In this document: positions 5,426 through 61,734 of the stretch, one piece after another | Numbering within the stretch: position 1 is the first letter of the stretch | Layout of the letters: each line of letters opens with the position of its first letter | Source: Candidatus Alcyoniella australis | GTDB lineage: Bacteria > Lernaellota > Lernaellaia > JAVCCG01 > Alcyoniellaceae | DNA: 64,000 nt | Assembly (NCBI GenBank): GCA_030765605.1 | Contig: JAVCCG010000098.1 | Coordinates: 30,835-94,834 of the forward strand | Reading direction: 5' to 3' | Notes under the pieces: generated by a model | Told to the model about the DNA's origin: nothing | Databases searched by the model: none | What the model saw: the letters and a program-made list of their open reading frames with translations, nothing else | Made by a program: the position numbers and the translations under genes

Positions 5426-6435
5426 TGAAAATCGTGACCCAAGCCTTTTCCCGCGCCGGGCTGATGGGCAACCCCGGCGACGGCTATTGCGGCAAGGCGC
5501 TCGCGTTGAGCGTGCGCAATTTCAGCGCGCAGGCGACCATCGAGCCCAGCGCGCGGCTGTGCATCGCGCCCCAGCGTCAAGACCTGCTCGAGTTCGACAA
5601 CGTGCAGCAGCTAGTGCGCGGCGTGCGCGAACACGGTTATTACGGCGGCGTGCGACTGCTCAAGGCGACGATCAAGCTCTTTGCCGAGCACTGCATTGCC
5701 CGGGGGATAGAGCTGCGCCCGGATTGCTTCACCATCAGCTATTGCACCACGATCCCGGTGCAGGTCGGACTGGCCGGATCCAGCGCAATCATCACCGCCG
5801 CGATGCGCGCACTGATGCGCTTCTACAACGTCGAGATCGAGCGCGAGCTGCTGCCCTCGCTGATCCTGAGCGTCGAGCGCGAGGAGCTGGGCATCGGCGC
5901 GGGGCTGATGGACCGCGTGATCCAGGTCTACGAGGGACTGGTGTTCATGGACCTCGGCCGCGAGCTGGTTGAAGGTCGGGGCTTGGGCGACTACGTGCCG
6001 CTGGACCCCGCGGCCCTGCCGCCGCTTTACCTGGCCTACAACGAGGGCTTGGCCAAGGGCAGCGAGTTCACGCACAACCCGTTGCGCGCGCGCTTTGAAC
6101 GCGGAGAGCCGGAAATGCTCGCGAAAGTCGCTCAACTGGCTGAGTTGGCCGTACGCGCACGAGAGCTGCTCGAACACGGGCGCGGCGACGAGCTCGGGTC
6201 GCTGATGGATGAGAACTTCGATTTGCGCGCCGCGCTGTGCAATATCGGCCCGGGCGATATGCAGTTGATCAACATTGGCCGCGAGCTGGGCGCGCATCCC
6301 AAGTTCGCCGGATCGGGCGGCGCGGTGATCGGCGCGTTCGATGGCGACCCACAGCGCCTGGAACGTCTGCGCCGCGCCTACGCCAAGATCGACGCCACGC
6401 TGATCGTGCCGCAGATCGCGGCCGAGGAGGACTGA
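5425..6435 (+). CDS. GHMP-family kinase (glucuronokinase-like sugar kinase)
   Basis: ATG 5425 shares its A with upstream TGA (TGATG); GHMP motif GLAGSSAIITAAMRAL; N-terminal AGLMGNPGDGYCGKAL pattern. Confidence 0.75.
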   Translation: MKIVTQAFSRAGLMGNPGDGYCGKALALSVRNFSAQATIEPSARLCIAPQRQDLLEFDNVQQLVRGVREHGYYGGVRLLKATIKLFAEHCIARGIELRPDCFTISYCTTIPVQVGLAGSSAIITAAMRALMRFYNVEIERELLPSLILSVEREELGIGAGLMDRVIQVYEGLVFMDLGRELVEGRGLGDYVPLDPAALPPLYLAYNEGLAKGSEFTHNPLRARFERGEPEMLAKVAQLAELAVRARELLEHGRGDELGSLMDENFDLRAALCNIGPGDMQLINIGRELGAHPKFAGSGGAVIGAFDGDPQRLERLRRAYAKIDATLIVPQIAAEED

Positions 6436-7553
6436 TGCGCTTCAGCCTCGGCGTTGCGGCCCTGGCGCTGGCATTGTCGCTGCTGCCGGTCGGGTGCGCG
6501 TCGCCGCCGGACGGGGGAGAGATGGACCGTACATTGACCGTGATCGACTACAACCTCTGGCACGGGCTCAATCCCGTAGGGCTGCTTAAGTTCGACGAGT
6601 TCGAGACTCCGGCCGAGCGTGAGCTGCGGCTCGAGGGATTCCTGGCCCAGGCGCGGGCCCTACAGCCGGACCTGATCTTTCTGCAGGAGGTCAACCCGGT
6701 GCCGGGCCTCTCGGCGCGGATCGCCGACGAGCTGGGCATGCAGCGCGTGTTCCAGGTGGGCAACTCCGGAATCAAGATCGGTTCTCTGGGGCCGCCGATC
6801 AACCTGCGCTCGGGCCTGGCGATCTTGGCCGCCCCACAGTTGCATCTTGAGAAGCTCGACGGCTGCAAACTCTCGGGATCGACCGGGCGTTGCGGCCCGT
6901 GGCTCTCGATCCAGACCGGGGAGTTCCGCTACGCGCTGGTCGCCCGCGTCGAGATCAACGGCCGCGAACTGATGCTGATCAACACCCATCTGCACCACGG
7001 GATGGAGATCGACCAGCAGGTGCGGCAGGGGTTGGATGAGCTGGTCGATAAAGGAACGATCACGCGCGAGCAGGCCGACGCTGCGCTGGCCGAGGTGGCC
7101 CTGGCCTCGCAGCGCAGGCGTAGCGAGATCGAGCGCGCCTTGGACTGCGCCGCGGACGCCGGTCTCGACCAGTCCACGCCCGTACTGTTTGCCGGCGACT
7201 TCAACGCCTCGCCCGATGCCCCCGAGCTCACGTGGCTGAAAAGCCATCTGGGCTTCGCCTCGGTCACTGACGATAGCGACCCGCAGAACCTGCTTTACAC
7301 CTGGGACCCCCAGCGCAATTCCAACACGCTGTTCGTCAGCGATTTCAAGCCGCCCAGCGACGGCGAGGGGCTGATCTTCGCGCACCTGGGGCAGACGCTG
7401 GTTCATCAGCGACGGCGGCTGGACTACATCTTCACGCGCTCCACCGGCTCGCTGCTCGAGCCGCGCGAGTCCGGCCTGTTCGCCGACCAGCCGCGCAACG
7501 GCACGATGAGCTCGGACCACTTCGGCGTGTTCGCCAAATTCGAGATCAAATAA
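6435..7553 (+). CDS. Endonuclease/exonuclease/phosphatase (EEP, sphingomyelinase-like) family lipoprotein
   Basis: Start taken at ATG 6435 (overlaps upstream stop; gives MRFSLGVAALALALSLLPVGC lipobox). EEP motifs NLWHG, IFLQEVN, GDFNA, SDHFGV. The 6237 start in the ORF track only adds an Arg-rich extension inside the previous gene. Confidence 0.8.
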   Translation: MRFSLGVAALALALSLLPVGCASPPDGGEMDRTLTVIDYNLWHGLNPVGLLKFDEFETPAERELRLEGFLAQARALQPDLIFLQEVNPVPGLSARIADELGMQRVFQVGNSGIKIGSLGPPINLRSGLAILAAPQLHLEKLDGCKLSGSTGRCGPWLSIQTGEFRYALVARVEINGRELMLINTHLHHGMEIDQQVRQGLDELVDKGTITREQADAALAEVALASQRRRSEIERALDCAADAGLDQSTPVLFAGDFNASPDAPELTWLKSHLGFASVTDDSDPQNLLYTWDPQRNSNTLFVSDFKPPSDGEGLIFAHLGQTLVHQRRRLDYIFTRSTGSLLEPRESGLFADQPRNGTMSSDHFGVFAKFEIK

Positions 7554-7554
7554 A

Positions 7555-7620
7555 GCAGCTATGAGCTGCACCAAAACTCGCAAGCGAACCTTGCGCGTTG
7601 CTCTACGATATTTTCCGCGT
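7555..7620 (+). repeat. Copy of the 67-bp intergenic repeat family (array orientation), abutting the EEP stop codon
   Basis: GCAGCT-atg-AGCTGC hairpin then ACCAAAACTCGC ... ACGATATTTTCCGCGTCG, colinear with array unit (GCTGCCACAAAACTCGCG ... ACGATCCACTCCGCGGCG). Confidence 0.6.
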
Positions 7621-7680
7621 CGCGGAGTGGATCGTAGGTAACCGACAAACGTAATACACGAGATTTGTGCCGACTCAGAG
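7621..7680 (-). repeat. Inverted copy of the 67-bp repeat family, head-to-head with the previous copy
   Basis: CGCGGAGTGGATCGT...ACACGAGATTTGTGCC matches reverse complement of array unit (CGCGGAGTGGATCGTTG...ACGCGAGTTTTGTGGC); junction CCGCG-T-CGCGG is palindromic. Confidence 0.6.
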
Positions 7681-7754
7681 CCGCTCGCGTTGGATGGGGC
7701 GGCAAGGTGAATTGTTTTAATTAATCTCGAGCCAATACCCCGCGAGCCTTCACC

Positions 7755-7778
7755 TAATAATGTTATTCAACATTATTA
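7755..7778. promoter_or_regulatory. Perfect 10-4-10 AT-rich palindrome, Fur/Zur-box-like, orphan (between convergent gene ends)
   Basis: TAATAATGTT-attc-AACATTATTA; lies in an AT-rich island in a 395-bp spacer between the 3' ends of the EEP gene and tatA. Confidence 0.4.
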
Positions 7779-7796
7779 TCCCTCCCCGATGCTTAG

Positions 7797-7874
7797 TCGC
7801 GGGGTGGATCGTTGCATCAAGACCGGCGTACTGCGCGAGCCTTGCCGCGGCTCCAAGCCGCCTCCAAGGTGCCC
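7797..7874 (-). repeat. Inverted copy of the 67-bp repeat family
   Basis: GTCGCGGGGTGGATCGTTGC...GCGCGAGCCTTGCC-GCGGC-tccaa-GCCGC-CTCCAAGGTGCC; hairpin 7847-7861. Confidence 0.65.
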
Positions 7875-7920
7875 AAACAAAAACCGCACCTGCTGGGATG
7901 TCGGTCCCGGCCGGTGCGGT
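7875..7920 (-). terminator. Rho-independent terminator of tatA
   Basis: On minus strand ACCGCACC...GGTGCGGT stem (7913-7920 / 7883-7890) followed by TTTTGTTTGGG. Confidence 0.7.
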
Positions 7921-8342: not shown

Positions 8343-10418
8343 TCAGCCGCAGCACGCGTCGTCATCGTCGTCGTCGCCCGCACTATCGTCATCGTCGTCG
8401 TCGTCATCGCCGCCGGTGATCACGATGTAGTCGGCTTTGGTTTCGACGTTCTCACCGGCCACGCCCAGGCCGGTGAGTGAAACCGTGTAGATGCCCGGCG
8501 TATTGAAGATGTAGGTCGGCGAGTTCTCGGTGGACGAGCCGCCGTCGCCGAACTCCCAGTACTGCCCCAGCAGGCAGCCGGGCAGCACATCGATCGCTGA
8601 GCTGAAGTTTACGCTCAGCGGCGCGGCTCCCTGGGTCACGTCGGCGCTGAAGTCGACGACCGGCGCCTCGCAGGGGACCGTAACCACTACCGCGTCGAGA
8701 TCGAAGCCCGGGGTCGCTCCGCTGCCGCCGCTGCCGTCGTCCTCGATCTTGATGTAGCGCGCCTCGGACAGGCCCGAGGGCGAGATGTCGAGGTCGGTAG
8801 TGCCGTCGGCCACGCCGATCACCTGCCAGGGCCCCAGCCAATGCTCGGCAACGAAGATCGCAGCTCCCTCCGGGTCGGAGCCGGACTCGACGATCTGCAC
8901 GTCGGCCCCGGCCGAATCGACGATCGGCGTACCAAGGCCCATGTCGAGCACCACGTAGCCGTCGTTGCCGATGGAGTAGGCATAGCCATCGGGCGCACCC
9001 AGGGCGGTCAGGGGCATCGAGGGATTGGCGTGGGTCCAGCCATCGGCGCGGTCGTTGGCGATCACGCGCATGGCGTAATATTCGGGAGTCGCCGCCGGCA
9101 CCAGCTCAAAGCTGAGTTCCTCTTTGGATCCGTCGAACACCTGCGCGGAGGATGTGGCCGGGGCGTAGCCGTTGGCCCAGGCGACCACGGTCCAATCACC
9201 GGCGCGGATGTAGCGGTGGAAGTCGCCAAGATCCGAATCGCTGTAGAACGCCCAACCCTCCTGGGCGATGCGCAACATGGCGAACAGCGGCGCGCCCGAG
9301 GCCGCGTCGACCACCGTGCCGCTCAGCCCCTGGTCGAGCACATCGAGCAGCGCCAGTTGGCCGCTGAGATTGCGCGCATTGTAGCTCGGAATCTGCGAGT
9401 ACGACGGCGTCTTGGTGCTGCTGACCTCGACGATGAACGCCATGGCGCCGCCGGCCAGATAGTAGGTCTCCTCGCTGATGCCCTGCACCTCGTACCAATC
9501 GTAGCCGTTGGTGATCGGATAGCTCGCGGCGCTGCCGTAGACAGATGCAAGCCCGCTCAGCGTGGTGTCGTCCGGCGCGAGTTGGGGTTGGGAATCCATC
9601 GGGTAGTTGATCGTCTCTGCACCCGAATGATAGTTCGCGCCGAAGGTCAGGGCGTGCTCGAGGAAGAACTCGGTCACCGCCTGCAATTCGGGTTCGCTGC
9701 CGCCGACTCCCGAGCCCTCGTAGAAGATCGGGAACGAACGGTTCAGATCTTTGCCGTGGGAGTTGTAGCGTGTGCTCGCGGTGCAGCCGTCGGGGTTGAG
9801 CATCGGCATGATGTAGATCTCGAACCCGTCGACCAGCTGCTGTACGCTCGCGTCGCTGTCGTACGTGCTGAGCAGATGGTTGGCGAGGTTGATCACCGCC
9901 TCAAAGCTGCTCCATTCGTCGCCGTGGATTCCGCCATCGAACCAGACCTCGGGCTCGGGCTCGTTGGTATCGGCGTTGTCGCTGATTTTAATCACCCACA
10001 ACTCGCGGCCATCCACGCTCTGGCCGATGCTGAAAAGCTGCGTCAGCGCGGGGTAGCCGTCGGCCAGGTTGCCAAGCAGCGCGGCCATCGAGCTGTAGTC
10101 GTAATACCCGTCGGGCTTGGGCGAGGAGAGCTGCTGCGGTGTTTGCAGCACCTCGATCTCGTAGCCCAGGGCCTCGAGCTCGTCGATCTCCTGCGGATTG
10201 AGAAACGCCTTGAGCCCGAACTCGTCGGCCCCGTCGACGATCAGTCCCATGTGCGTTAAGGCGTCGCGCTCCGCGCGGTCCTGGGTCAGGATCAGACAGT
10301 ACGACTCGTTGGCGTAATCGCGAATCTCGTCCTGGGCCGCAACCACCGTACAAGCCAGCAGCACCGCCAGGGCGCTTGATATCGCGAGAGTCAAAGCTGA
10401 GGCTCGTTTACGTCTCAT
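8343..10418 (-). CDS. Secreted M14 zinc carboxypeptidase with C-terminal PKD domain and poly-Asp/ACCG tail
   Basis: 691 aa; signal peptide; HXXE zinc motif GGIHGDEWSS and HSGAETINYP; PKD-like FSADVTQGAAPLSVNF...WEFGDGGSS...GIYTVSLT; ends GGDDDDDDDDSAGDDDDDDACCG; AGAGGAA SD. Confidence 0.85.
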   Translation of the reverse strand: MRRKRASALTLAISSALAVLLACTVVAAQDEIRDYANESYCLILTQDRAERDALTHMGLIVDGADEFGLKAFLNPQEIDELEALGYEIEVLQTPQQLSSPKPDGYYDYSSMAALLGNLADGYPALTQLFSIGQSVDGRELWVIKISDNADTNEPEPEVWFDGGIHGDEWSSFEAVINLANHLLSTYDSDASVQQLVDGFEIYIMPMLNPDGCTASTRYNSHGKDLNRSFPIFYEGSGVGGSEPELQAVTEFFLEHALTFGANYHSGAETINYPMDSQPQLAPDDTTLSGLASVYGSAASYPITNGYDWYEVQGISEETYYLAGGAMAFIVEVSSTKTPSYSQIPSYNARNLSGQLALLDVLDQGLSGTVVDAASGAPLFAMLRIAQEGWAFYSDSDLGDFHRYIRAGDWTVVAWANGYAPATSSAQVFDGSKEELSFELVPAATPEYYAMRVIANDRADGWTHANPSMPLTALGAPDGYAYSIGNDGYVVLDMGLGTPIVDSAGADVQIVESGSDPEGAAIFVAEHWLGPWQVIGVADGTTDLDISPSGLSEARYIKIEDDGSGGSGATPGFDLDAVVVTVPCEAPVVDFSADVTQGAAPLSVNFSSAIDVLPGCLLGQYWEFGDGGSSTENSPTYIFNTPGIYTVSLTGLGVAGENVETKADYIVITGGDDDDDDDDSAGDDDDDDACCG
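8358..8408 (-). repeat. GAC/GAT trinucleotide tract encoding D6-GAS-D8 at the M14 C-terminus
   Basis: gtcgtcatcgtcgtcgtc...atcgtcatcgtcgtcgtcgtcatc read directly. Confidence 0.9.
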
Positions 10419-10433
10419 GGTTGGTTCCTCTAT

Positions 10434-10505
10434 GCGGCTTTGAGCCGTTGCAAAACTCGCGTATCTCTATGGTCGTTTACTAAAAATCCACTCCGCGTCG
10501 CGCAG
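10434..10505 (+). repeat. Solo copy of the 67-bp intergenic repeat family
   Basis: GCGGC-tttga-GCCGT then TGCAAAACTCGCGTATCTCTATGGTCGTTTACTAAAAATCCACTCCGCGTCG, about 80% identical to array unit 4 over the post-loop part. Confidence 0.7.
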
Positions 10506-10611
10506 AGCATCATTGAACAATGACTACTGTCCGCTCGCGTGCTTTGCCGCAGCGCCAAGCTGCCTGATTGATAAATCATCATGAATAATCCGGACTGGGG
10601 TTTCAAGCGAG

Positions 10612-13850: not shown

Positions 13851-14777
13851 TTAGCTTCTGCGAGCCAACTTGCTGACGAAGGCCGGGATCAGGATAACGA
13901 GCATCACGTAGCCCAGTAACATTTCTATATTCACTGCTGTGGCCGCGACGTTTGTGTGGGGAACTAGGTTGCTGGAACCAATGGGTACGAAAGTGAAAAA
14001 GCTGTAGTGCATGACGCTGAATCGGGTCCAAGGCAAAGGCTCAGCATCAAATGAGCCAGGCGGCAGAAAGTCATAGAATAAGAATCCGAAGCCAATAGGT
14101 AGGACAATACATAAGCCAAGCAAGAGCCAGAGAAACCTCCCGCAGTCAGCGAATATCAGCCAGGGATAGTAGAGGACTTTTTCCCTCTTCGTCTCCTGTA
14201 GCTCTTCAAGATAATCCTGGTCCTGGGCAAAGCGCTTGAAACGCTGACTGCCGTAGCAACCCTCGACACGAATGCCTCTGCACCTCGTTTTTCGATTAAA
14301 AGTAACCCCAGCAACATTGGCTTTTTCCAGGTTCGCGAAGCCGAGGTAAGCGCCCTTGAGGTGTGACCCAATGAGGTCAGCTCCATCGAGGTGTGCCCCA
14401 TTTAGGAAAGCGCCCTTGAGATGCGCCCCAGAGAGGGCAGCGCCCTGGAGCTGCGCCCCCAAGAGTTTAGCTCCCTCGAGATGCGCCCCTACAAGGTTGG
14501 TTTTCTCGAGATGCGCCCCAATGAGGTAAGCGCCATTGAGGTGTGCCCTGCTGAAGTTAGCACCCTCGAGGTGTGCCTCAAAGAGGTTAGCGCCCTCGAG
14601 GTGTGCCTCGCTGAGGTCAGCGCCCTTGAGGTGTGCATCATTGAGGATAGCGCCCTTGAGGTGCGGAAACCATCTAGGGTTTTCCTTGCGAAGTTCGTTC
14701 CATTCCTTGACCCGGCTTTCCTGAAGCATGGCGATTGCTTCTTCTTTGGAAATCGGGGGCTGATATTTGTCGGTCAT
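13851..14777 (-). CDS. Pentapeptide-repeat protein fused to a 2-TM K-channel-like pore domain with degenerate filter
   Basis: About 24 A(D/N)LxG-type pentapeptides (LKGADLSEAHLEGANLFEAHLEGANF...); C-terminus TM1-(HYSFFTFVPIGSSNLVPHT)-TM2 resembles YFSxVTxTTVGYGDxxPxT pore loop. Confidence 0.8.
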   Translation of the reverse strand: MTDKYQPPISKEEAIAMLQESRVKEWNELRKENPRWFPHLKGAILNDAHLKGADLSEAHLEGANLFEAHLEGANFSRAHLNGAYLIGAHLEKTNLVGAHLEGAKLLGAQLQGAALSGAHLKGAFLNGAHLDGADLIGSHLKGAYLGFANLEKANVAGVTFNRKTRCRGIRVEGCYGSQRFKRFAQDQDYLEELQETKREKVLYYPWLIFADCGRFLWLLLGLCIVLPIGFGFLFYDFLPPGSFDAEPLPWTRFSVMHYSFFTFVPIGSSNLVPHTNVAATAVNIEMLLGYVMLVILIPAFVSKLARRS

Positions 14778-14954
14778 GGTCCAACCCTTAATAGACTTAG
14801 TTGCTAAGTGTACAAGTCATGCAAGCCCTGCGTCGATTAGTTAGACATTCCACAAGAGCCTTTGCAACCTGCAACAACCGGCCCGCAATACGAGCTACGT
14901 CATAAGCTGCCTTGCGATGCTCTGCGAAGATCCTATCCAAGATTGGAGGGCACT

Positions 14955-34552: not shown

Positions 34553-35334
34553 CTGCGCGTCTCCTTTCGCGCGTTGACGCGCAACGCAGTGCTCAGCAAT
34601 TTCAGCGGCCAGAGGCTCGTCAGCAAACGGTCGAGCCCCAGGTAGGCCCGCACGATCACTCCCGGCTCGCGCCCCAGCCCCAGGCGCGTGGGCAGGTTGC
34701 GCGGCAGCCAGTGATAAGACTCCACCAACTCCACCTTAAAACCATGTTCTCGCAACAGCCGCCCCACCCCGCGCCGCGAGTATAGCCGCTCGTGGGCAAT
34801 GCGGCCCAGCAGCCGCCCCAGCGCCTCGGTCCACGACAGACGGTTGGGCAGATGGTAGATCGCCAGCAGGCCGCCGGGACGCAGAATGCGTTGGATCTCG
34901 TCAAGGGAGGCCATGTCGTCGGGCACGTGCTCGAGCACGCCGCAGCTGAGCACCGCGTCGAACGAGCCATCGGCGAACGGCAGCGCGGAATCGTCGGCTC
35001 CGCCGATTAGGGGACGCGTGCTTTGATCACCGAACAGCCAGGGCCAGGCTTGATAGTAAGTCGGCCGCACGTCGAAGCTCGTGACCTTGAGCCCGGCCGC
35101 GTCGAGCAAAAAGCTGTTGTGTCCCCAGCCCGATCCCCAGTCGAGCACGCTCGCGCCCGGCGGCAGCTGCGCGGCCAGCTCGCGCGCGATTTGCACGTAC
35201 TGCGCCGCGCCCAGAGCCGAGCCGATGTGAATGCTGCGCCGGTGGCGCGTCAGCTCGTCGACCTCCAACCGCCGGCCGTACTCGATAATACGACTCAGGG
35301 CCGTATCGAGCCGCGGGGTGAGATCGTCGCTCAT
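34549..35334 (-). CDS. Class-I SAM-dependent methyltransferase
   Basis: VLDWGSGWGHNS motif I, FDAVLSCGVLEHV, LRPGGLL. Confidence 0.85.
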   Translation of the reverse strand: MSDDLTPRLDTALSRIIEYGRRLEVDELTRHRRSIHIGSALGAAQYVQIARELAAQLPPGASVLDWGSGWGHNSFLLDAAGLKVTSFDVRPTYYQAWPWLFGDQSTRPLIGGADDSALPFADGSFDAVLSCGVLEHVPDDMASLDEIQRILRPGGLLAIYHLPNRLSWTEALGRLLGRIAHERLYSRRGVGRLLREHGFKVELVESYHWLPRNLPTRLGLGREPGVIVRAYLGLDRLLTSLWPLKLLSTALRVNARKETRS

Positions 35335-37055
35335 TGGACGATCGCCATCAGCAACACGGCCAGGAGGAAGTGGGCCTCAATCAACGCCTGGGTCCAGATT
35401 CCGTTGACCTTGCGCGGTAAGCGCATCAGCAGCGCCTCGATTCCGACCAACGCGCCGATCAGCCCCGCGGCCCAGGGCAGCCAACCCAGCAGCGCGCAAC
35501 AGATCAGCCACAGGCCCAGGCCCAGGGCGGCCAGTCGCGCGGCGCGCACGCTGGCGTCGATGCCGAAGATCGTCGGCACGCTCTCGCGGCCTGCGAGCCG
35601 ATCCGAGGCGAAGTCGGCCAAATCGAACAGCAGCGAGCGCAGCCAGGTCGCGGCAAGCAGCGCCAGAGTCGCGGCCAGGCAGGGTGCGGCCGCGGGGCGC
35701 GCGTACCAGGCAATGGGCCCGGCGGTGATGATCGTCCAGCCCAAAGCGACCGAGACGTTCTTGCTCGCGGCCAGGTCCTTGAGCCGCGCGGCGCCCAGTC
35801 GCGTTGCCGCCACTTTTGGAAGCAGCGGCACCGAGTAGACGAACCCGAGCAACGCCGAGACGAGCACGATCAGCGCCGGGACCGCGCCCAGCGCCGTTGC
35901 CGCAAATGCCGAGCCGACTCCCGCGGCCAGACACAGCGGCCACAACGCCAGCCGGTAGCGCCTCATGAAGCGTTGGCGTTGGGGCTCGTCGCGGTAGCGG
36001 TCCGCGGCAAAGTCGGTCAGGCGGTTGAGCAGATGGATGAACATCACGAACAGCGCCGGGACCAACAACGCCGGCAGATACAGCGCACGGTCGACGGCGA
36101 GCAGGAAGAACGCGGCCAGCGCGGCCGCGGCCAGGGCGGATGATAATCCGGCGAGCACCAGGCCGCGCAGCCCGGCGAAAAGATACAGGCTCAGCCGCCG
36201 CAGGCCCGTGGCCTCGGCGTAGGCCGCGCGTTCGCCCAGGCGCTGGACCACCTGTTCGATAACCCACGAGGGCGTGCTTGCGCCCGCGGTAATTCCCAGC
36301 CGTTGCACGCCCTCCAGGTCCAGCTCGTCGACCTGCTGCGGCTGTTCGATTTGCACGGTGCGCACGATCCCCCGGCCGATCTGCGTCAGCCGCGAGGTGT
36401 TGCCGCTGTTGCTGCCGCCGACCACCAACAGCAGGTCGACCTTGGCGGCCAACTCGCGTACTTCCTTCTGCCGCGCGCGCGTGGCGTCGCAGATCGTGTT
36501 GCGCACCTCGGGCTCGCCGGTTGCCAGCTCGCGGGCGCGATCCACCACCTCGCGGAACAACTCGGGGTCCTGGGTAGTCTGAGCCACCAGGCAGACCGGC
36601 TCGGGCAGCGGGTCGGGCAGCTCCTGCGGCCCGCCGATCACCAGGCCGCGCCCGCCGGCATAGCCCAGCAGCGCCCGCACCTCAGGGTGGTCGCGGTCCC
36701 CGAGGATGATCACGTGCTTTCCCTCGGCCGCCTGCTTGGCGATCACCTTGTGCACTGCCTTGACCTTGGGACAGGTGGCGTCGAGGATCCGCAACCCGCG
36801 CTCTCGCAGTTCCTGCTCTTGCCGCGGTCCGATGCCGTGACTGCGGATCACCGCGGTGCCACCCTGGATCTGCGCCGCGTCCGCCGCGCACAAAACGTTG
36901 CGCAGTTCGAGCAGCTCGACCACCTGCGGGTTATGCACCAGCGGACCGACAGTGGCCATCTGCCCGGCGCCGGGCCGGACCGCCTCGAGCACCATGTCCA
37001 CGGCGCGGCGCACTCCCATGCAGAAGCCCGCGGTCCGGGCGAGGATAATCTCCAT
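35331..37055 (-). CDS. ispH: Fusion: IspH (HMBPP reductase) + C-terminal UbiA-superfamily prenyltransferase membrane domain
   Basis: N-terminal ~285 aa with three IspH cluster Cys (GFCMGV, DATCPKV, NTICDAT); C-terminal ~285 aa with ~8 TM helices and Asp-rich motifs NRLTDFAADRY (NxxxDxxxD) and FDLADFASDRLAG (DxxDxxxD). Confidence 0.85.
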   Translation of the reverse strand: MEIILARTAGFCMGVRRAVDMVLEAVRPGAGQMATVGPLVHNPQVVELLELRNVLCAADAAQIQGGTAVIRSHGIGPRQEQELRERGLRILDATCPKVKAVHKVIAKQAAEGKHVIILGDRDHPEVRALLGYAGGRGLVIGGPQELPDPLPEPVCLVAQTTQDPELFREVVDRARELATGEPEVRNTICDATRARQKEVRELAAKVDLLLVVGGSNSGNTSRLTQIGRGIVRTVQIEQPQQVDELDLEGVQRLGITAGASTPSWVIEQVVQRLGERAAYAEATGLRRLSLYLFAGLRGLVLAGLSSALAAAALAAFFLLAVDRALYLPALLVPALFVMFIHLLNRLTDFAADRYRDEPQRQRFMRRYRLALWPLCLAAGVGSAFAATALGAVPALIVLVSALLGFVYSVPLLPKVAATRLGAARLKDLAASKNVSVALGWTIITAGPIAWYARPAAAPCLAATLALLAATWLRSLLFDLADFASDRLAGRESVPTIFGIDASVRAARLAALGLGLWLICCALLGWLPWAAGLIGALVGIEALLMRLPRKVNGIWTQALIEAHFLLAVLLMAIVQ

Positions 37056-54117: not shown

Positions 54118-55023
54118 TTACTTTCCGCAGTTTGACTGGGCGGCGATGGAGGTGATCATCCCCTTCTCCGCTCCGCTGATGATCCCTGCCTTCTTGCACT
54201 CATTGGTGTAGTGGGCCACGCAGGACTCGTACTCACCGTGGTTGGCCCAATCCCAGTCGCAGGGGCACATTGCCTCGATCGGGCAGTCGCCGGGATACAC
54301 CGGATTGTCATCATCATCATCATCATCGTCGTCGTCGTCGTCGTCGCCGCCAATGTCGTCGTCATCATCGTCGTCGGCATCGTCGTCATCGTCGTCGTCG
54401 CCCAGGTCGTCGTCATCGTCGGCGTCGTCATCGTCGTCGCCGTCATCGTCATCGTCGGCGTCGTCATCGTCGTCGCCGCCCAGGTCGTCGTCATCGTCAT
54501 CGTCGTCGCCCGCGACAGCCCCGTCTCCGGGCCCGCAACATAGAGGAGCCATCGGATCCTCGTCAAACTCGGCGACGTCAGGGGCGTTGTCGTCAAGGGC
54601 ATAGATATAGTTGGAGCTGTTGAGCTGCGAGGTGCTGCAGATCACCCAGTCATGCGGCTGGTATCCGTCTATTCCCTCGGGAAAGGCGTTGACCAGGGTG
54701 CCCGATCCGCCCTCACCGTCCTCGTCGATGTAGGGGCTGATGATCTCGTATTCACCTGCAATCGAATCCTTGCCCGTGCGGCTGTACATATCATCCAACT
54801 CGGCCGTGGTCGGCGGCATGCCATGGTCCTCCTGGAAGATAACCGCCAGGGACTGCAGATTGCGAACGTCCATCATCACACTTGCGTTCTCGGCGTCTCC
54901 GCGCACTGAGGCGTAAATCGGGATGGCGATCGCCGACAAAATGCCGATCACTGCGACCACGATCATCATCTCGATCAGAGAGAATCCGTTCTCTGCTCTT
55001 GTGTGCATTGCTTTTCTTTCCAT
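54118..55023 (-). CDS. Type IV pilin/pseudopilin-like protein with poly-Asp linker and Cys-rich C-terminal module
   Basis: ATG 55023 with GGAGGGG SD; prepilin motif G-FSLIEMMIVVAVIGILSAIAIP; 68-aa tract with 55 Asp; terminal 62 aa with 6 Cys (CPIEAMCPCDWDWANHGEYESCVAHYTNEC...NCGK). Confidence 0.85.
   Translation of the reverse strand: MERKAMHTRAENGFSLIEMMIVVAVIGILSAIAIPIYASVRGDAENASVMMDVRNLQSLAVIFQEDHGMPPTTAELDDMYSRTGKDSIAGEYEIISPYIDEDGEGGSGTLVNAFPEGIDGYQPHDWVICSTSQLNSSNYIYALDDNAPDVAEFDEDPMAPLCCGPGDGAVAGDDDDDDDDLGGDDDDDADDDDDGDDDDDADDDDDLGDDDDDDDADDDDDDDIGGDDDDDDDDDDDDDNPVYPGDCPIEAMCPCDWDWANHGEYESCVAHYTNECKKAGIISGAEKGMITSIAAQSNCGK
54307..54510 (-). repeat. 204-nt GAC/GAT trinucleotide tract (poly-Asp coding)
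   Basis: Runs of gtc/atc codons interrupted by single gcc/ggc/cag/aat codons; D8-LGG-D5-A-D5-G-D5-A-D5-LG-D7-A-D7-IGG-D13. Confidence 0.9.
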
Positions 55024-55295
55024 GACAGCCCCTCCATTTTGAGCGCCAGCGAATAAGAGATATTCACGAAGCATGCCAAGGGCTTCGCTAAATATAAACG
55101 ACCTGATTACAATGAGTTGAATGCCATAAGGGATGAAGTTCCGTAATTGCTCAAGTTGGTTATAAAACTTTTTGAAACCAACTGTTTACAATACGTAACA
55201 GCGACCCCGCACAATTGGTCGCCAAACAGCGGCGCCAGCCCGGAATTGGGGCGGTCCGCGTTTAGCCCGATTTTATCTTTGGAAATAGGTGGTCG

Positions 55296-55320
55296 GTGCG
55301 GCGGCTGTGAGCCGCCGCAC
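55296..55320 (-). terminator. GC hairpin downstream of the second pilin-like gene (terminator candidate, no U tract)
   Basis: GTGCGGCGGC-tgtga-GCCGCCGCAC, 18 nt past the stop at 55338. Confidence 0.4.
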
Positions 55321-55337
55321 TCGAAGAATAATGCGGG

Positions 55338-55847
55338 CTATAAAAACTGGTCGATATTCAGTGGATCCTGCCCGTCGGGCACGCGCACCAGCGGGTTGTC
55401 GTCCATGCCGAAGATGTATTCGTATTTCGGAAGTTCGCGGGTGCTGAAGATCAGGAAGAACTTGGGCGCGTATTCCGATGGAGCAGGCAGGCCGTTGGCG
55501 CCGCCCACACCGGGATTGCCGTCGTCCCAACCGTCCCAGTCGTTGCCGTGGCCGTTGTTGTCGTCTTCACTGTTGATCATGATCATGTATTCGCCCACGA
55601 TCGAGTCCTTGCCCGACCTACGATACATTTCGTCGAGCTGATCGAGCGTCGGCGGCGTCCCCTTGTCCTCCATGTAGATCACGGCCAGCGACTGGAGGTT
55701 GCGGATATCGCTCACAACTTCAATGAGTTCGGCATCGGCCCGCACTCCCCTGTAGGTGGGAATTGCGATTGCAGACAGAATACCGATAATACCGATCACA
55801 ATCACAAGCTCGATTAGGGTGAATCCTGCTTTCGCTCGAGCATCCAT
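55338..55847 (-). CDS. Type IV pilin/pseudopilin-like protein (169 aa), paralogue of 54118-55023 core
   Basis: ATG 55847 with GAGGAGGG SD gives MDARAKAG-FTLIELVIVIGIIGILSAIAIP; shares ...NLQSLAVI..ED.G.PPT...LD.MY.R.GKDSI.GEY.I with neighbour. Confidence 0.85.
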   Translation of the reverse strand: MDARAKAGFTLIELVIVIGIIGILSAIAIPTYRGVRADAELIEVVSDIRNLQSLAVIYMEDKGTPPTLDQLDEMYRRSGKDSIVGEYMIMINSEDDNNGHGNDWDGWDDGNPGVGGANGLPAPSEYAPKFFLIFSTRELPKYEYIFGMDDNPLVRVPDGQDPLNIDQFL

Positions 55848-56106
55848 TTTATCGCCCTCCTCGCCTTTGGATCGGCTCCGTCGCTCCAATTGCGGTGTTT
55901 CATGCTACCTCTCCGTCTTGATGAGATACATTCCCCATGCCACAATGGAGATAAATCTTGATTGCTTTATCGTTTCAACTGATTGATGTTAGAGCTGCAC
56001 AACATGTGGGGGCGATCGCTGCATAACTTATTCGCCAACAGGCTTACAAAAGGTAAGTATTTAGCCCGTAATACTAGTATTAAACTTGTCTTTGTTTACG
56101 CGATTG

Positions 56107-58863: not shown

Positions 58864-58995
58864 GACCAAACTAAACAGCAACCCGCATGCCGAACTGTGG
58901 ACAAGACGCTGTATCTACTTGATATTAGGCTAATCTTATTTTTTTAGTGTTCTTTGGCCCAATCCAGCCCAAGCAAGCTGCTTCACACCTAGCGG

Positions 58996-59021
58996 CCCAA
59001 TTTGACCCAATCTTCCCCAAT
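58996..59021. promoter_or_regulatory. Three CCCAAT direct repeats phased at exactly 10 bp upstream of the FHA gene
   Basis: CCCAAT at 58996, 59006, 59016 (a fourth at 58958) in an AT-rich stretch 130-160 bp upstream of the FHA start. Confidence 0.3.
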
Positions 59022-59036
59022 CCGAATCTTAATTTT

Positions 59037-59460
59037 CCACCCCGCACCCGGCACCTTGGAGGTGCCCGCATGACTCGCGTAGTTCGATGGTTGTTAGGCA
59101 ACGATCCACCCCGCGACGACACCTTTGAGGTGCCACAAAACTCGCGTAGCTCGCTGGTCGTAATGCCACGATCCACTCCGCGGCGGCACCTTGGAGGTGC
59201 CCACAAAACTCGCGTAGTTCGATGGTTGTTAGGCAACGATCCACTCCGCGGCGACACCTTTGAGGTGCCACAAAACTCGCGTAGCTCGATGGTTGTTAGG
59301 CAACGATCCACTCCGCGGCGACACCTTGGAGCTGCCACAAAACTCGCGTAGTTCGATGGTTGTTAGGCAACGATCCACTCCGCGGCGACACCTTGGAGCT
59401 GCCCGCAAAACTCGCGGATTACGCTGGTAGTTGACCAACGTGCCACTCCGCGACCAAAGA
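59037..59460 (+). repeat. Tandem array: 6 full + 1 truncated copies of a 67-69-bp non-coding unit
   Basis: Units begin CCAC[CT]CCGCG at 59037, 59106, 59173, 59241, 59308, 59375, 59443; consensus CCACTCCGCGGCGACACCTTGGAGGTGCCACAAAACTCGCGTAGTTCGATGGTTGTTAGGCAACGAT. Confidence 0.95.
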
Positions 59461-59475
59461 TCGGGGAGGTGGGGT

Positions 59476-59530
59476 AAAGATCGTAGAAACGATCTTTGTT
59501 TGTAGGCTCGCCGAGGCGGCTTGGAGCCGC

Positions 59531-59532
<2 letters not shown>
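59476..59532 (-). terminator. Two hairpins at the 3' end of the poly-Asp lipoprotein gene (terminator candidates)
   Basis: AGGCGGC-ttgga-GCCGCCT (59514-59532, overlaps stop codon) and AAAGATCGT-agaa-ACGATCTTT (59476-59497); no long U tract. Confidence 0.4.
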
Positions 59533-61282
<1,750 letters not shown>

Positions 61283-61474
61283 ACGCGTCTCCCAATGGAA
61301 GGCTGGGGCCAATAGGATTAGCATGCCACGAACGGCCGGTCAAAAGCCCGTCATCGCATTTGGAATTGTTTTCGCGCTAGCCTGGATTATTTATGATGGT
61401 GCGTAGCGAGGAGTACAAGATGCCGCAAGAACAAGGAAGCACTCCTAACTCAAAGGCCGACGAGGGTCTCTGCG

Positions 61475-61545
61475 ACGCGGGGAGGTTCGTTGGTCAACGA
61501 GAGGCGCGATACGCGAGCTTTGCGGGCGGCTCAAAGCCGCCTGCG
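61475..61545 (-). repeat. Solo inverted copy of the 67-bp repeat family
   Basis: Reverse complement reads AGGCGGC-tttga-GCCGCC-CGCAAAGCTCGCGTATCGCGCCTCTCGTTGACCAACGAACCTCCCCGCG, closest to array unit 6 (…CCCGCAAAACTCGCGGATTACGCTGGTAGTTGACCAACGTGCCACTCCGCG). Confidence 0.65.
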
Positions 61546-61734
61546 CAGGCGTACCAATTGAGGTACGTCGAGGACGGATCGGCGAGGATGACACAGTTAT
61601 TGCCAGCAGATTGTGCCCGCAGTAGAACCCTTATGAATAATCCCGGCTAGGCCGTTTGACACGGCGCAGGCCAGCCGGGATCATTCATTCAAGCTTCACA
61701 GGCCGGTATTTCCAGACAGTGGGAGGTGTGCACG

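Follow-up and report, generated by a model that had tools for sequence, protein, structure and literature searches.

Between the 3' end of a poly-Asp lipoprotein gene (597 aa) and the start of an FHA-GGDEF gene there is a 649-nt gap, and within it lie six units of 67-69 nt arranged head-to-tail (59037-59442), followed by a diverged tail that reaches 59533. Both genes are encoded on the minus strand, the array is antisense to both, and a PLD/cardiolipin-synthase-like gene comes after the FHA-GGDEF gene in the same operon. The question raised by this locus is what such an array is, and whether it belongs to the operon beside it. We analysed the whole 64-kb stretch of DNA around it, here called the window, and found six further copies of the unit in three other intergenic regions with an HMM and a covariance model. 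We consider it likely that the unit of 67-69 nt is an arm belonging to a REP/REPIN- or BOX-like family of interspersed extragenic repeats that had not been described before.

The tandem array

TRF analysis of the array gave a period of 67, with 5.9 copies, 87% matches and a score of 585, and a second period of 135 nt with 92% matches. The 135-nt period reflects the alternation of two unit subtypes, A and B. Subtype A units have a TTGGA loop, GCCCACAAAA and TAGTTCG, and subtype B units have a TTTGA loop, GCC-ACAAAA and TAGCTCG. All six units and the terminal palindrome share one orientation. The features of the array are as follows (copy D and singlet A are dispersed copies listed in the next section):

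59037-59105, plus strand: U1, 69 nt, subtype A with TTGGA loop; a diverged edge unit (nhmmer E=1e-20)
59106-59172, plus strand: U2, 67 nt, subtype B with TTTGA loop
59173-59240, plus strand: U3, 68 nt, subtype A, with a perfect 6-bp hairpin
59241-59307, plus strand: U4, 67 nt, subtype B
59308-59374, plus strand: U5, 67 nt, hybrid subtype, with a C.C mismatch in the hairpin (CACC/GCTG)
59375-59442, plus strand: U6, 68 nt, the most diverged unit, which has GTTGACCAACG in common with copy D
59443-59513, plus strand: tail module, made up of CCACTCCGCG-ACCAAAGAT-CGGGGAGGTGGGG, a 9-bp hairpin and GTTTGT-AGGCTCGCCG; homologous to the tail of singlet A
59514-59532, plus strand: solitary palindrome AGGCGGC-TTGGA-GCCGCCT with a 7-bp stem, covariance-model score 18 bits

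The unit starts reported in the first-pass annotation (59037, 59106, 59173, 59241, 59308 and 59375, and a truncated one at 59443) and their spacings of 69/67/68/67/67/68 agreed exactly with our re-measurement. The hairpins that it had named at 59050-59066, 59185-59201 and 59514-59532 were all found as described. The first two are perfect GGCACC-TTGGA-GGTGCC hairpins with loops at 59056 and 59191, and the third does overlap the stop codon of the adjacent lipoprotein gene, which lies at 59531-59533. Two features that it had assigned to every unit turned out to be less general. The conserved core CACAAAACTCGCGTAG occurs 4 times compared with 0.05 expected by chance, but it is altered in U1 and U6. 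The small GTTG-loop-CAAC palindrome, in the form GTTG-TTAGG-CAAC, is confined to U1, U3, U4 and U5 and does not extend to the remaining units.

We also assessed the coding potential of the array. The ORFs running through it have a codon-position-3 GC of 0.53-0.55, compared with 0.80-0.83 in the flanking genes and 0.80-0.88 in real genes here, and no Pfam match was obtained for them. Judged by codon-position GC, the array region is non-coding, and a coding repeat was rejected on these two grounds. The same conclusion had previously been drawn from the shift of reading frame between units; the conclusion stands, but the frame argument alone is insufficient because two units together span 135 nt, which is divisible by 3. 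A CRISPR array, which had also been discounted earlier, was rejected because the entire 67-nt period is repeated (87-92% identity) rather than being separated by unique spacers, and the sole Rfam CRISPR-repeat hit (E=2.5) falls in the tail. Three ATTGGG motifs with 10-bp phasing come after the array. PADLOC returned only weak DrmC-type PLD hits near it.

Dispersed copies in the window

An HMM was built from the six array units, and the window was searched with nhmmer. The search found copies at 61486-61551 (minus strand), 7808-7875 (minus), 10430-10484 (plus) and 7631-7697 (minus), with E values from 2e-6 to 1e-3. A covariance model, R1, was built from ten sequences and used, with filters off, to scan the entire window. 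It recovered the four nhmmer-found copies, A, B, C and D, at 76-81 bits, and it also scored two diverged arms, B' and C', which are outside its training set. Together with the array this brings the total for the 64 kb to 12 arms at 4 loci, which all fall within the intergenic 11.7% of the window. The dispersed copies are as follows:

7741-7872, minus strand: singlet A, a full arm (7793-7872) with a tail module; found by nhmmer, covariance-model score 81 bits
7616-7695, minus strand: arm B of the doublet B'/B; found by nhmmer, covariance-model score 76 bits
7544-7624, plus strand: arm B', diverged, with the hairpin GCAGC-TATGA-GCTGC; covariance-model score 25.9 bits, E=5e-5
10423-10502, plus strand: arm C of the doublet C/C'; found by nhmmer, covariance-model score 76 bits
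10494-10574, minus strand: arm C', diverged, with the hairpin GCAGC-TTGGC-GCTGC; covariance-model score 32.7 bits, E=8e-7
61471-61551, minus strand: singlet D; found by nhmmer, covariance-model score 78 bits

Singlet A lies downstream of the tatA terminator in sense orientation. Arm B' begins at the stop codon of a plus-strand gene of the endonuclease/phosphatase family (6237-7553). Arm C is in antisense and leaves 17 nt between its end and the start codon of a minus-strand M14 peptidase gene (8343-10418) that lies downstream, and C' is located 38 nt past the stop of a DUF6263 gene in sense orientation. Singlet D occupies the divergent promoter region between the lipoprotein gene and folD. Relative to the upstream gene, therefore, orientation is mixed, with A, B, B' and C' in sense and C and the array in antisense. 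This mixed orientation beside unrelated genes argues against both a cis-regulator of the FHA operon and a family of independently transcribed RNA genes. Palindromes at or just past stop codons were seen at 59514-59532, 7555-7569 and 10549-10563, and there is a similar one at 55298-55325. Covariance-model hits at 55291-55325, 14784-14837 and 36850-36910 are weak or inside a gene and were excluded from the family count.

The two doublets, B'/B (7544-7695) and C/C' (10423-10574), are both inverted tail-to-tail, with their arms overlapping by 9 nt at a CGCG-N-CGCG centre and their palindrome centres 115 nt apart. They are homologous as wholes, 7549-7684 aligning with 10569-10434 at 69% over 136 nt. 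Each consists of one near-consensus arm and one diverged arm with a GCAGC/GCTGC hairpin. No target-site duplication was found at the ends of either doublet.

We searched for the element and for known families more widely. Rfam 15 yielded no family at gathering score in the whole window and chance-level hits only around the copies, in agreement with the earlier remark that no described RNA family could be recognised here. Neither the exact nor a degenerate unit pattern had a match in GTDB species genomes or JGI metagenomes. A relaxed tandem-core pattern returned at least 120 loci from metagenomes, none of which was unit-like by nhmmer, and a two-box pattern returned 14 singletons from GTDB genomes, which came from unrelated taxa, lacked nhmmer support and are attributed to chance. 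No copy was found in viral contigs (by pattern) or in plasmids and phages (by BLAST). About 105 kb of sequence from the loci of the nearest relatives contained neither the element nor a comparable tandem array, and gene order was unconserved. Homologues of the lipoprotein are at most 64% identical and their neighbourhood is not conserved, matches to the M14 peptidase reach at most 35%, and the best non-self match of the phosphofructokinase is 76%, with the next at about 60%. Pfam analysis of about 55 window ORFs revealed no transposase, RAYT, insertion sequence or other mobile-element gene in 64 kb. No tRNA or tmRNA was found, and no IHF consensus site is present. An integron attC site was considered and rejected; GTTAGGC occurs in 4 units and is unconserved in the other copies.

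Arm anatomy, pairing and array history

The anatomy of the arm was derived from an alignment of all twelve arms. A GC-rich imperfect palindrome of 13-19 nt is followed by box 1 (CAAAACTCGCG), exactly 26 nt, and box 2 (CCACYCCGCG). Across the twelve arms the box consensus is CAA(A/G)NCTCGCG for box 1 and CC(A/T)C(C/T)CCGCG for box 2. The palindrome tip is constant, C-T-[N-K-G]-A-G, and the stem occurs in three versions. The array units have CACC/GGTG, copies A-D and the terminal palindrome have CGGC/GCCG, and the diverged arms B' and C' have CAGC/GCTG. GTAG was found solely in U1-U5, 14-15 nt 3' of the hairpin, and CAGT or TATC stands at this place in A-D.

The palindrome (hairpin 1) has stems of 4-7 bp, with 95% of cells paired, and two of its pairs survive changes on both sides. 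The covariation is weak: 3 pairs changed on both sides, which is not above shuffles, in a set of 12 arms of which six come from one array. Hardly any variation is seen in the pairs of the two remaining predicted helices (CGCG with CGCG, and an inner hairpin). Single units are predicted to form two stem-loops on either strand (-21 to -28 kcal/mol, z -0.8 to -2.9). For the B'/B doublet a single long hairpin is predicted (z=-3.7 on one strand and -2.9 on the other), and the fold of C/C' (z=-1.8 and -0.4) is unconvincing compared with shuffled sequence. The G.U evidence on which strand would be the RNA is conflicting. In U2, U4, U5 and U6 the outer pair reads A.C on the sense strand and G.U on the antisense strand, whereas copy B has G.U in sense, opposing the strand signal from those four units. 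When the arm is read in antisense, a composite stem closed by CGCG/CGCG is followed by AGUUUUG.

The tail was compared between the array and singlet A. Downstream of U6 the order is CCACTCCGCG-ACCAAAGAT-CGGGGAGG, a 9-bp hairpin and AGGCTCGC, and the hairpin (59476-59497) has a perfect 9-bp stem, AAAGATCGT-AGAA-ACGATCTTT. Singlet A at 7.8 kb continues in the same way, with CCACCCCGCG-ACTAAGCAT-CGGGGAGG, an AT-rich perfect hairpin of 10 bp at 7755-7778, and then AAGGCTCGCG. Alignment of the two tail hairpins showed that four stem pairs differ and that both hairpins are fully Watson-Crick. These changed-but-complementary hairpins are the strongest single sign of maintained pairing. No G.U intermediate is seen in them, and a DNA-level palindrome would fit at least as well as an RNA helix.

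The distances between the units bear on how the array arose. U3, U4 and U5 differ from one another at 3-4 positions, U1 and U2 differ from their subtype partners at 5-9, and U6 differs from all other units at 13-17. Because the edge units are diverged and the central units are near-identical, the array is best read as a tandem amplification of one dispersed element. The more likely founder is U6 with its tail, that is, a complete dispersed element, and the tail and the unit divergence appear to tie the array to a singlet ancestor. The pattern of divergence suggests that a singlet like the 7.8-kb copy was amplified through slipped-strand mispairing or unequal recombination. In at least one step of this amplification, a block of two units (135 nt) would have been duplicated together; homogenisation may still be going on in the centre of the array, and the edges would be old. 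Old edges around a homogenised centre are what tandem arrays usually show.

A different origin had been suggested in the first-pass annotation, namely that the stop-codon hairpin had been duplicated again and again to build the array, and this proposal did not hold. That palindrome (59514-59532) has the CGGC/GCCG stem version and is 18/18 identical to 7847-7864, whereas the units have CACC/GGTG. In addition, the 70-nt tail module, homologous to the tail of singlet A, stands between the array units and the terminal palindrome. The stop-codon palindrome is a separate family member and not the seed of the array.

Known repeat systems and alternative explanations

Classical REPs are palindromes of 20-40 nt, and a GTAG-type tetranucleotide beside the palindrome is a criterion for REP/REPIN sequences. 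The present repeat resembles them in its GC-rich imperfect palindrome core, its extragenic copies, its occurrence as singlets and inverted doublets, and its occasional evenly spaced tandem arrays in one orientation. It differs from them in its arm of about 67-80 nt, which is two to three times longer and has two invariant boxes 26 nt apart. Moreover, the dispersed copies have no GTAG-type flank, there is no sequence similarity to REPs, and no RAYT gene was seen within 64 kb. In P. fluorescens SBW25, REPs mostly occur as inverted doublets with a spacing of 71 or 110 nt, and ordered tandem REP/REPIN arrays have been described, including evenly spaced REPs in a single orientation (PMC3116915). 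Like REPINs, the doublets found here are able to form a long hairpin, with a spacing of 115 nt compared with 71 and 110 nt in SBW25; unlike in REPINs, the two arms of each doublet are strongly diverged from one another.

BOX elements of Streptococcus pneumoniae and S. suis are composed of boxA-boxB(n)-boxC, in which the number of tandem boxB copies is variable and boxA and boxC are single (PMC3049150). They have terminal inverted repeats and target-site duplications, and in pneumococcus they create ORFs on both strands and their length differs from strain to strain (PMC3049150). The array is similar in part of its modular build, where [arm]x6 with the tail parallels B(n)-C, in the stem-loops predicted if it is transcribed, and in having ORFs on both strands. 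On the other hand, no distinct 5' (A) module was identified here, the amplified module is the basic dispersed arm, no terminal inverted repeats or target-site duplications were seen, host and base composition are unrelated, and the sequence is probably unrelated too.

Two further systems offer partial likenesses. BIME-2 elements of E. coli are mosaic clusters of REP palindromes with conserved linkers, which are intergenic, variable in number and alternating in orientation. The array likewise represents a cluster of palindromes amplified in an intergenic region, but it is strictly head-to-tail, only the doublets alternate, and it contains no IHF consensus site. ToxI antitoxin RNA arrays consist of head-to-tail non-coding copies of about 36 nt that sit directly upstream of a ToxN/AbiQ-type endoribonuclease gene and share its strand. 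Short non-coding units are also arranged head-to-tail upstream of protein genes at our locus; however, these units are 67 nt long and are also dispersed singly, their sense strand is opposite to the FHA-GGDEF/PLD genes, and there is no ToxN/AbiQ-type nuclease. A type III antitoxin RNA or another defence-system context was rejected, the neighbours being FHA-GGDEF and PLD/cardiolipin-synthase-like proteins.

Several other explanations have to be weighed against an extragenic repeat family. The element might not be a selfish REP-like repeat but a genome-wide functional recognition module of a deep-branching lineage, marked by a covarying hairpin, a fixed CU-NKG-AG tip and two invariant CGCG-containing boxes exactly 26 nt apart. 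It might act, for example, as an RNA 3'-end, processing or insulator signal or as the target of an RNA- or ssDNA-binding protein, and selection would then have favoured the array as a high-dose form that keeps the FHA-GGDEF/PLD operon apart from the gene upstream; we regard this as unlikely. Equally unlikely is the proposal of a selected RNA 3'-end or insulator signal, in which the arm would act as a terminator or stabiliser and the array as a strong insulator between the lipoprotein gene and the operon. The palindromes at or near stop codons, the composite CGCG/CGCG-closed stem with AGUUUUG in antisense, and the fact that the minus strand is the transcribed strand of both genes flanking the array all speak for such a signal. 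Yet orientation relative to the upstream gene is mixed, the U tract is just 4 nt and the CGCG stem just 4 bp, a simple terminator scan called 0 units, and a strong terminator at copy C, 17 nt before the next start codon, would silence that gene. A stand-alone non-coding RNA on the plus strand, divergent from the FHA gene and ending at the tail hairpin, might, with its many hairpins, act as a sponge or scaffold, binding for example a CsrA/RsmA-like protein or, by way of GGAGG-like loops, ribosomes. Consistent with it are a plus-strand promoter-like site at 58898-58926 (9/12 matches), the GTTTGT after the tail hairpin, the two stem-loops of individual units, and UUGGAG in the loops of U1, U3, U5, U6 and the terminal hairpin. 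Nevertheless, a single promoter-like match agrees with what chance would give (0.5 +/- 0.8 expected), no Rfam match exists, and the element occurs in both orientations relative to its neighbours, including directly behind the tatA terminator. GGA is present in the hairpin tip of 4/6 units, A and the terminal hairpin, but it is missing in U2, U4, B, B', C, C' and D, whose loops include TTTGA, TCTGA, TATGA and TTGGC, and a CsrA sponge was rejected; the lack of a CsrA gene within the window also counts against it, though it says little about the whole genome. Overall, a stand-alone RNA seems very unlikely.

A mobile origin of a conventional kind was also considered. The doublets, at about 150 bp with imperfect inverted arms and recurring as whole units, could be intact MITEs with terminal inverted repeats derived from a DDE insertion sequence, and the array a rearranged remnant. 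We find this quite unlikely, as neither doublet is flanked by a target-site duplication, the ends are themselves palindromes, which is typical of REPINs and not of terminal inverted repeats, and the window holds no insertion sequence. Very unlikely, too, is a DNA-level protein-binding platform for the FHA-GGDEF/PLD operon, in which the palindromes every 67 bp would be operator-like sites. GGCNNCT-NNN-AGNNGCC does resemble the site of a dimeric binding protein, the distance from the array to the likely FHA promoter downstream is 120-530 bp, and the ATTGGG motifs follow it in 10-bp phase. Against this, the stem covaries and is not conserved, which fits selection for pairing rather than base-specific recognition of double-stranded DNA, the 67-bp spacing does not correspond to whole helical turns, and the same element stands beside the unrelated tatA, M14 peptidase, DUF6263 and folD genes. 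Finally, the copy number could be an assembly artefact in which a short repeat was expanded or collapsed. The array of about 400 nt is longer than a short read and its central units differ at just 3-4 positions; even so, each unit can be distinguished from the rest, the subtypes alternate in an orderly way between diverged edge units, and the family is present independently at other loci. Such an artefact is extremely unlikely.

An extragenic repeat family is the explanation we prefer. The repeat is dispersed, extragenic and palindrome-bearing, and it occurs as singlets, as inverted doublets and as one direct tandem array. A REP/BIME-like element had been one of several candidates proposed before, and the copies in three other intergenic regions, including the inverted doublets, now favour it. 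Membership in the REP/RAYT family proper is not established. By analogy with RAYT-type Y1 transposases, the repeat family may have been spread by an enzyme that acts in trans and recognises the palindrome in single-stranded DNA. That the element also stands beside unrelated genes speaks against an FHA-operon-specific function, and the array probably lacks any role peculiar to the FHA-GGDEF/PLD operon. Any read-through from the lipoprotein gene would yield consecutive stem-loops, each unit contributing -21 to -28 kcal/mol; these could slow 3'-end decay or reduce read-through, effects that have been reported for REP and BOX elements. An effect on transcripts of this kind would be a by-product of the stem-loops.

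These results explain an odd-looking locus in ordinary terms, and they allow spurious ORFs to be removed from the annotation. The tandem array and the inverted doublets both have precedents (PMC3116915, PMC3049150); the family itself would be new and lineage-specific. For this lineage, of which very few relatives have been sequenced, the family is now defined by a covariance model that can be put to use and by a consensus (palindrome, CAAAACTCGCG, 26 nt, CCACYCCGCG). The array is likely to be a variable-number locus and could be used in strain typing. If the genome does contain hundreds of copies and a cognate transposase, this would add a new lineage to the REPIN-RAYT type of system, one in which the two-box arm is unusually long.

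Protein-coding context and relatives of the organism

Sequenced relatives of the source organism seem to be very scarce. Apart from self-matches, phosphofructokinase had its best protein hits at 76% and then ~60% identity, the lipoprotein encoded next to the array reached no more than 64%, and the M14 peptidase no more than 35%. Conserved gene order around the lipoprotein gene was found in none of the relatives examined. Very long stretches of poly-Asp occur in two proteins that are secreted or pilin-like; at the DNA level, Tandem Repeats Finder detected these stretches as (TCG)n repeats (54326-54508 and 61101-61201).

Poly-Asp proteins of the window
54118-55074, minus strand, prepilin-type N-methyl protein with ~75 Asp within an 85-residue stretch
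59531-61324, minus strand, poly-Asp lipoprotein with ~30 Asp

A further 30/60-nt tandem repeat of 10.7 copies (14343-14663) lies inside the pentapeptide-repeat/ion-channel gene at 13851-14777 (minus strand); it is coding and bears no relation to the intergenic array. Elsewhere, IspH/LytB and UbiA prenyltransferase domains are joined in a single ORF (35331-37055, minus strand), which is an uncommon fusion.

Elements beside a putative promoter and a start codon

A spacer of 193 nt (10419-10611) divides a DUF6263 gene from the one for the M14 carboxypeptidase. The inverted doublet of two repeat arms, C/C', occupies nearly all of this spacer and ends 17 nt before the carboxypeptidase start codon; therefore, the peptidase gene must either be co-transcribed through the doublet or be served by a promoter inside it.

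Beside the array, the motif CCCAAT (ATTGGG on the minus strand) occurs four times within 58958-59021, and three of these copies, at 58996, 59006 and 59016, are spaced at exactly 10-bp phasing. The cluster has the array on one side and, on the other, the putative FHA-GGDEF promoter, which is AT-rich. It stands out locally because the motif is not enriched across the whole window (20 matches versus 22.6 expected), and it may be a regulator-binding site.

Possible partial and decayed copies of the repeat family

A palindrome, GCGGCGGC-TGTGA-GCCGCCGC, followed by ACTCG, was located at 55298-55325, 13 nt past the stop codon of a minus-strand gene for a pilin-like protein (55338-55889). Its sequence is similar to the family palindrome and the beginning of box 1. 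As it scored only 15 bits with the covariance model of the family, it may be either a decayed singlet or merely a terminator.

At singlet A, one of the dispersed copies, the sequence GGCACCTTGGAGG (7860-7872, minus strand) lies immediately 5' of the palindrome and corresponds to the 5' arm and loop of an array-type hairpin. This is a 13-nt partial duplication and may be a first step toward tandem growth.
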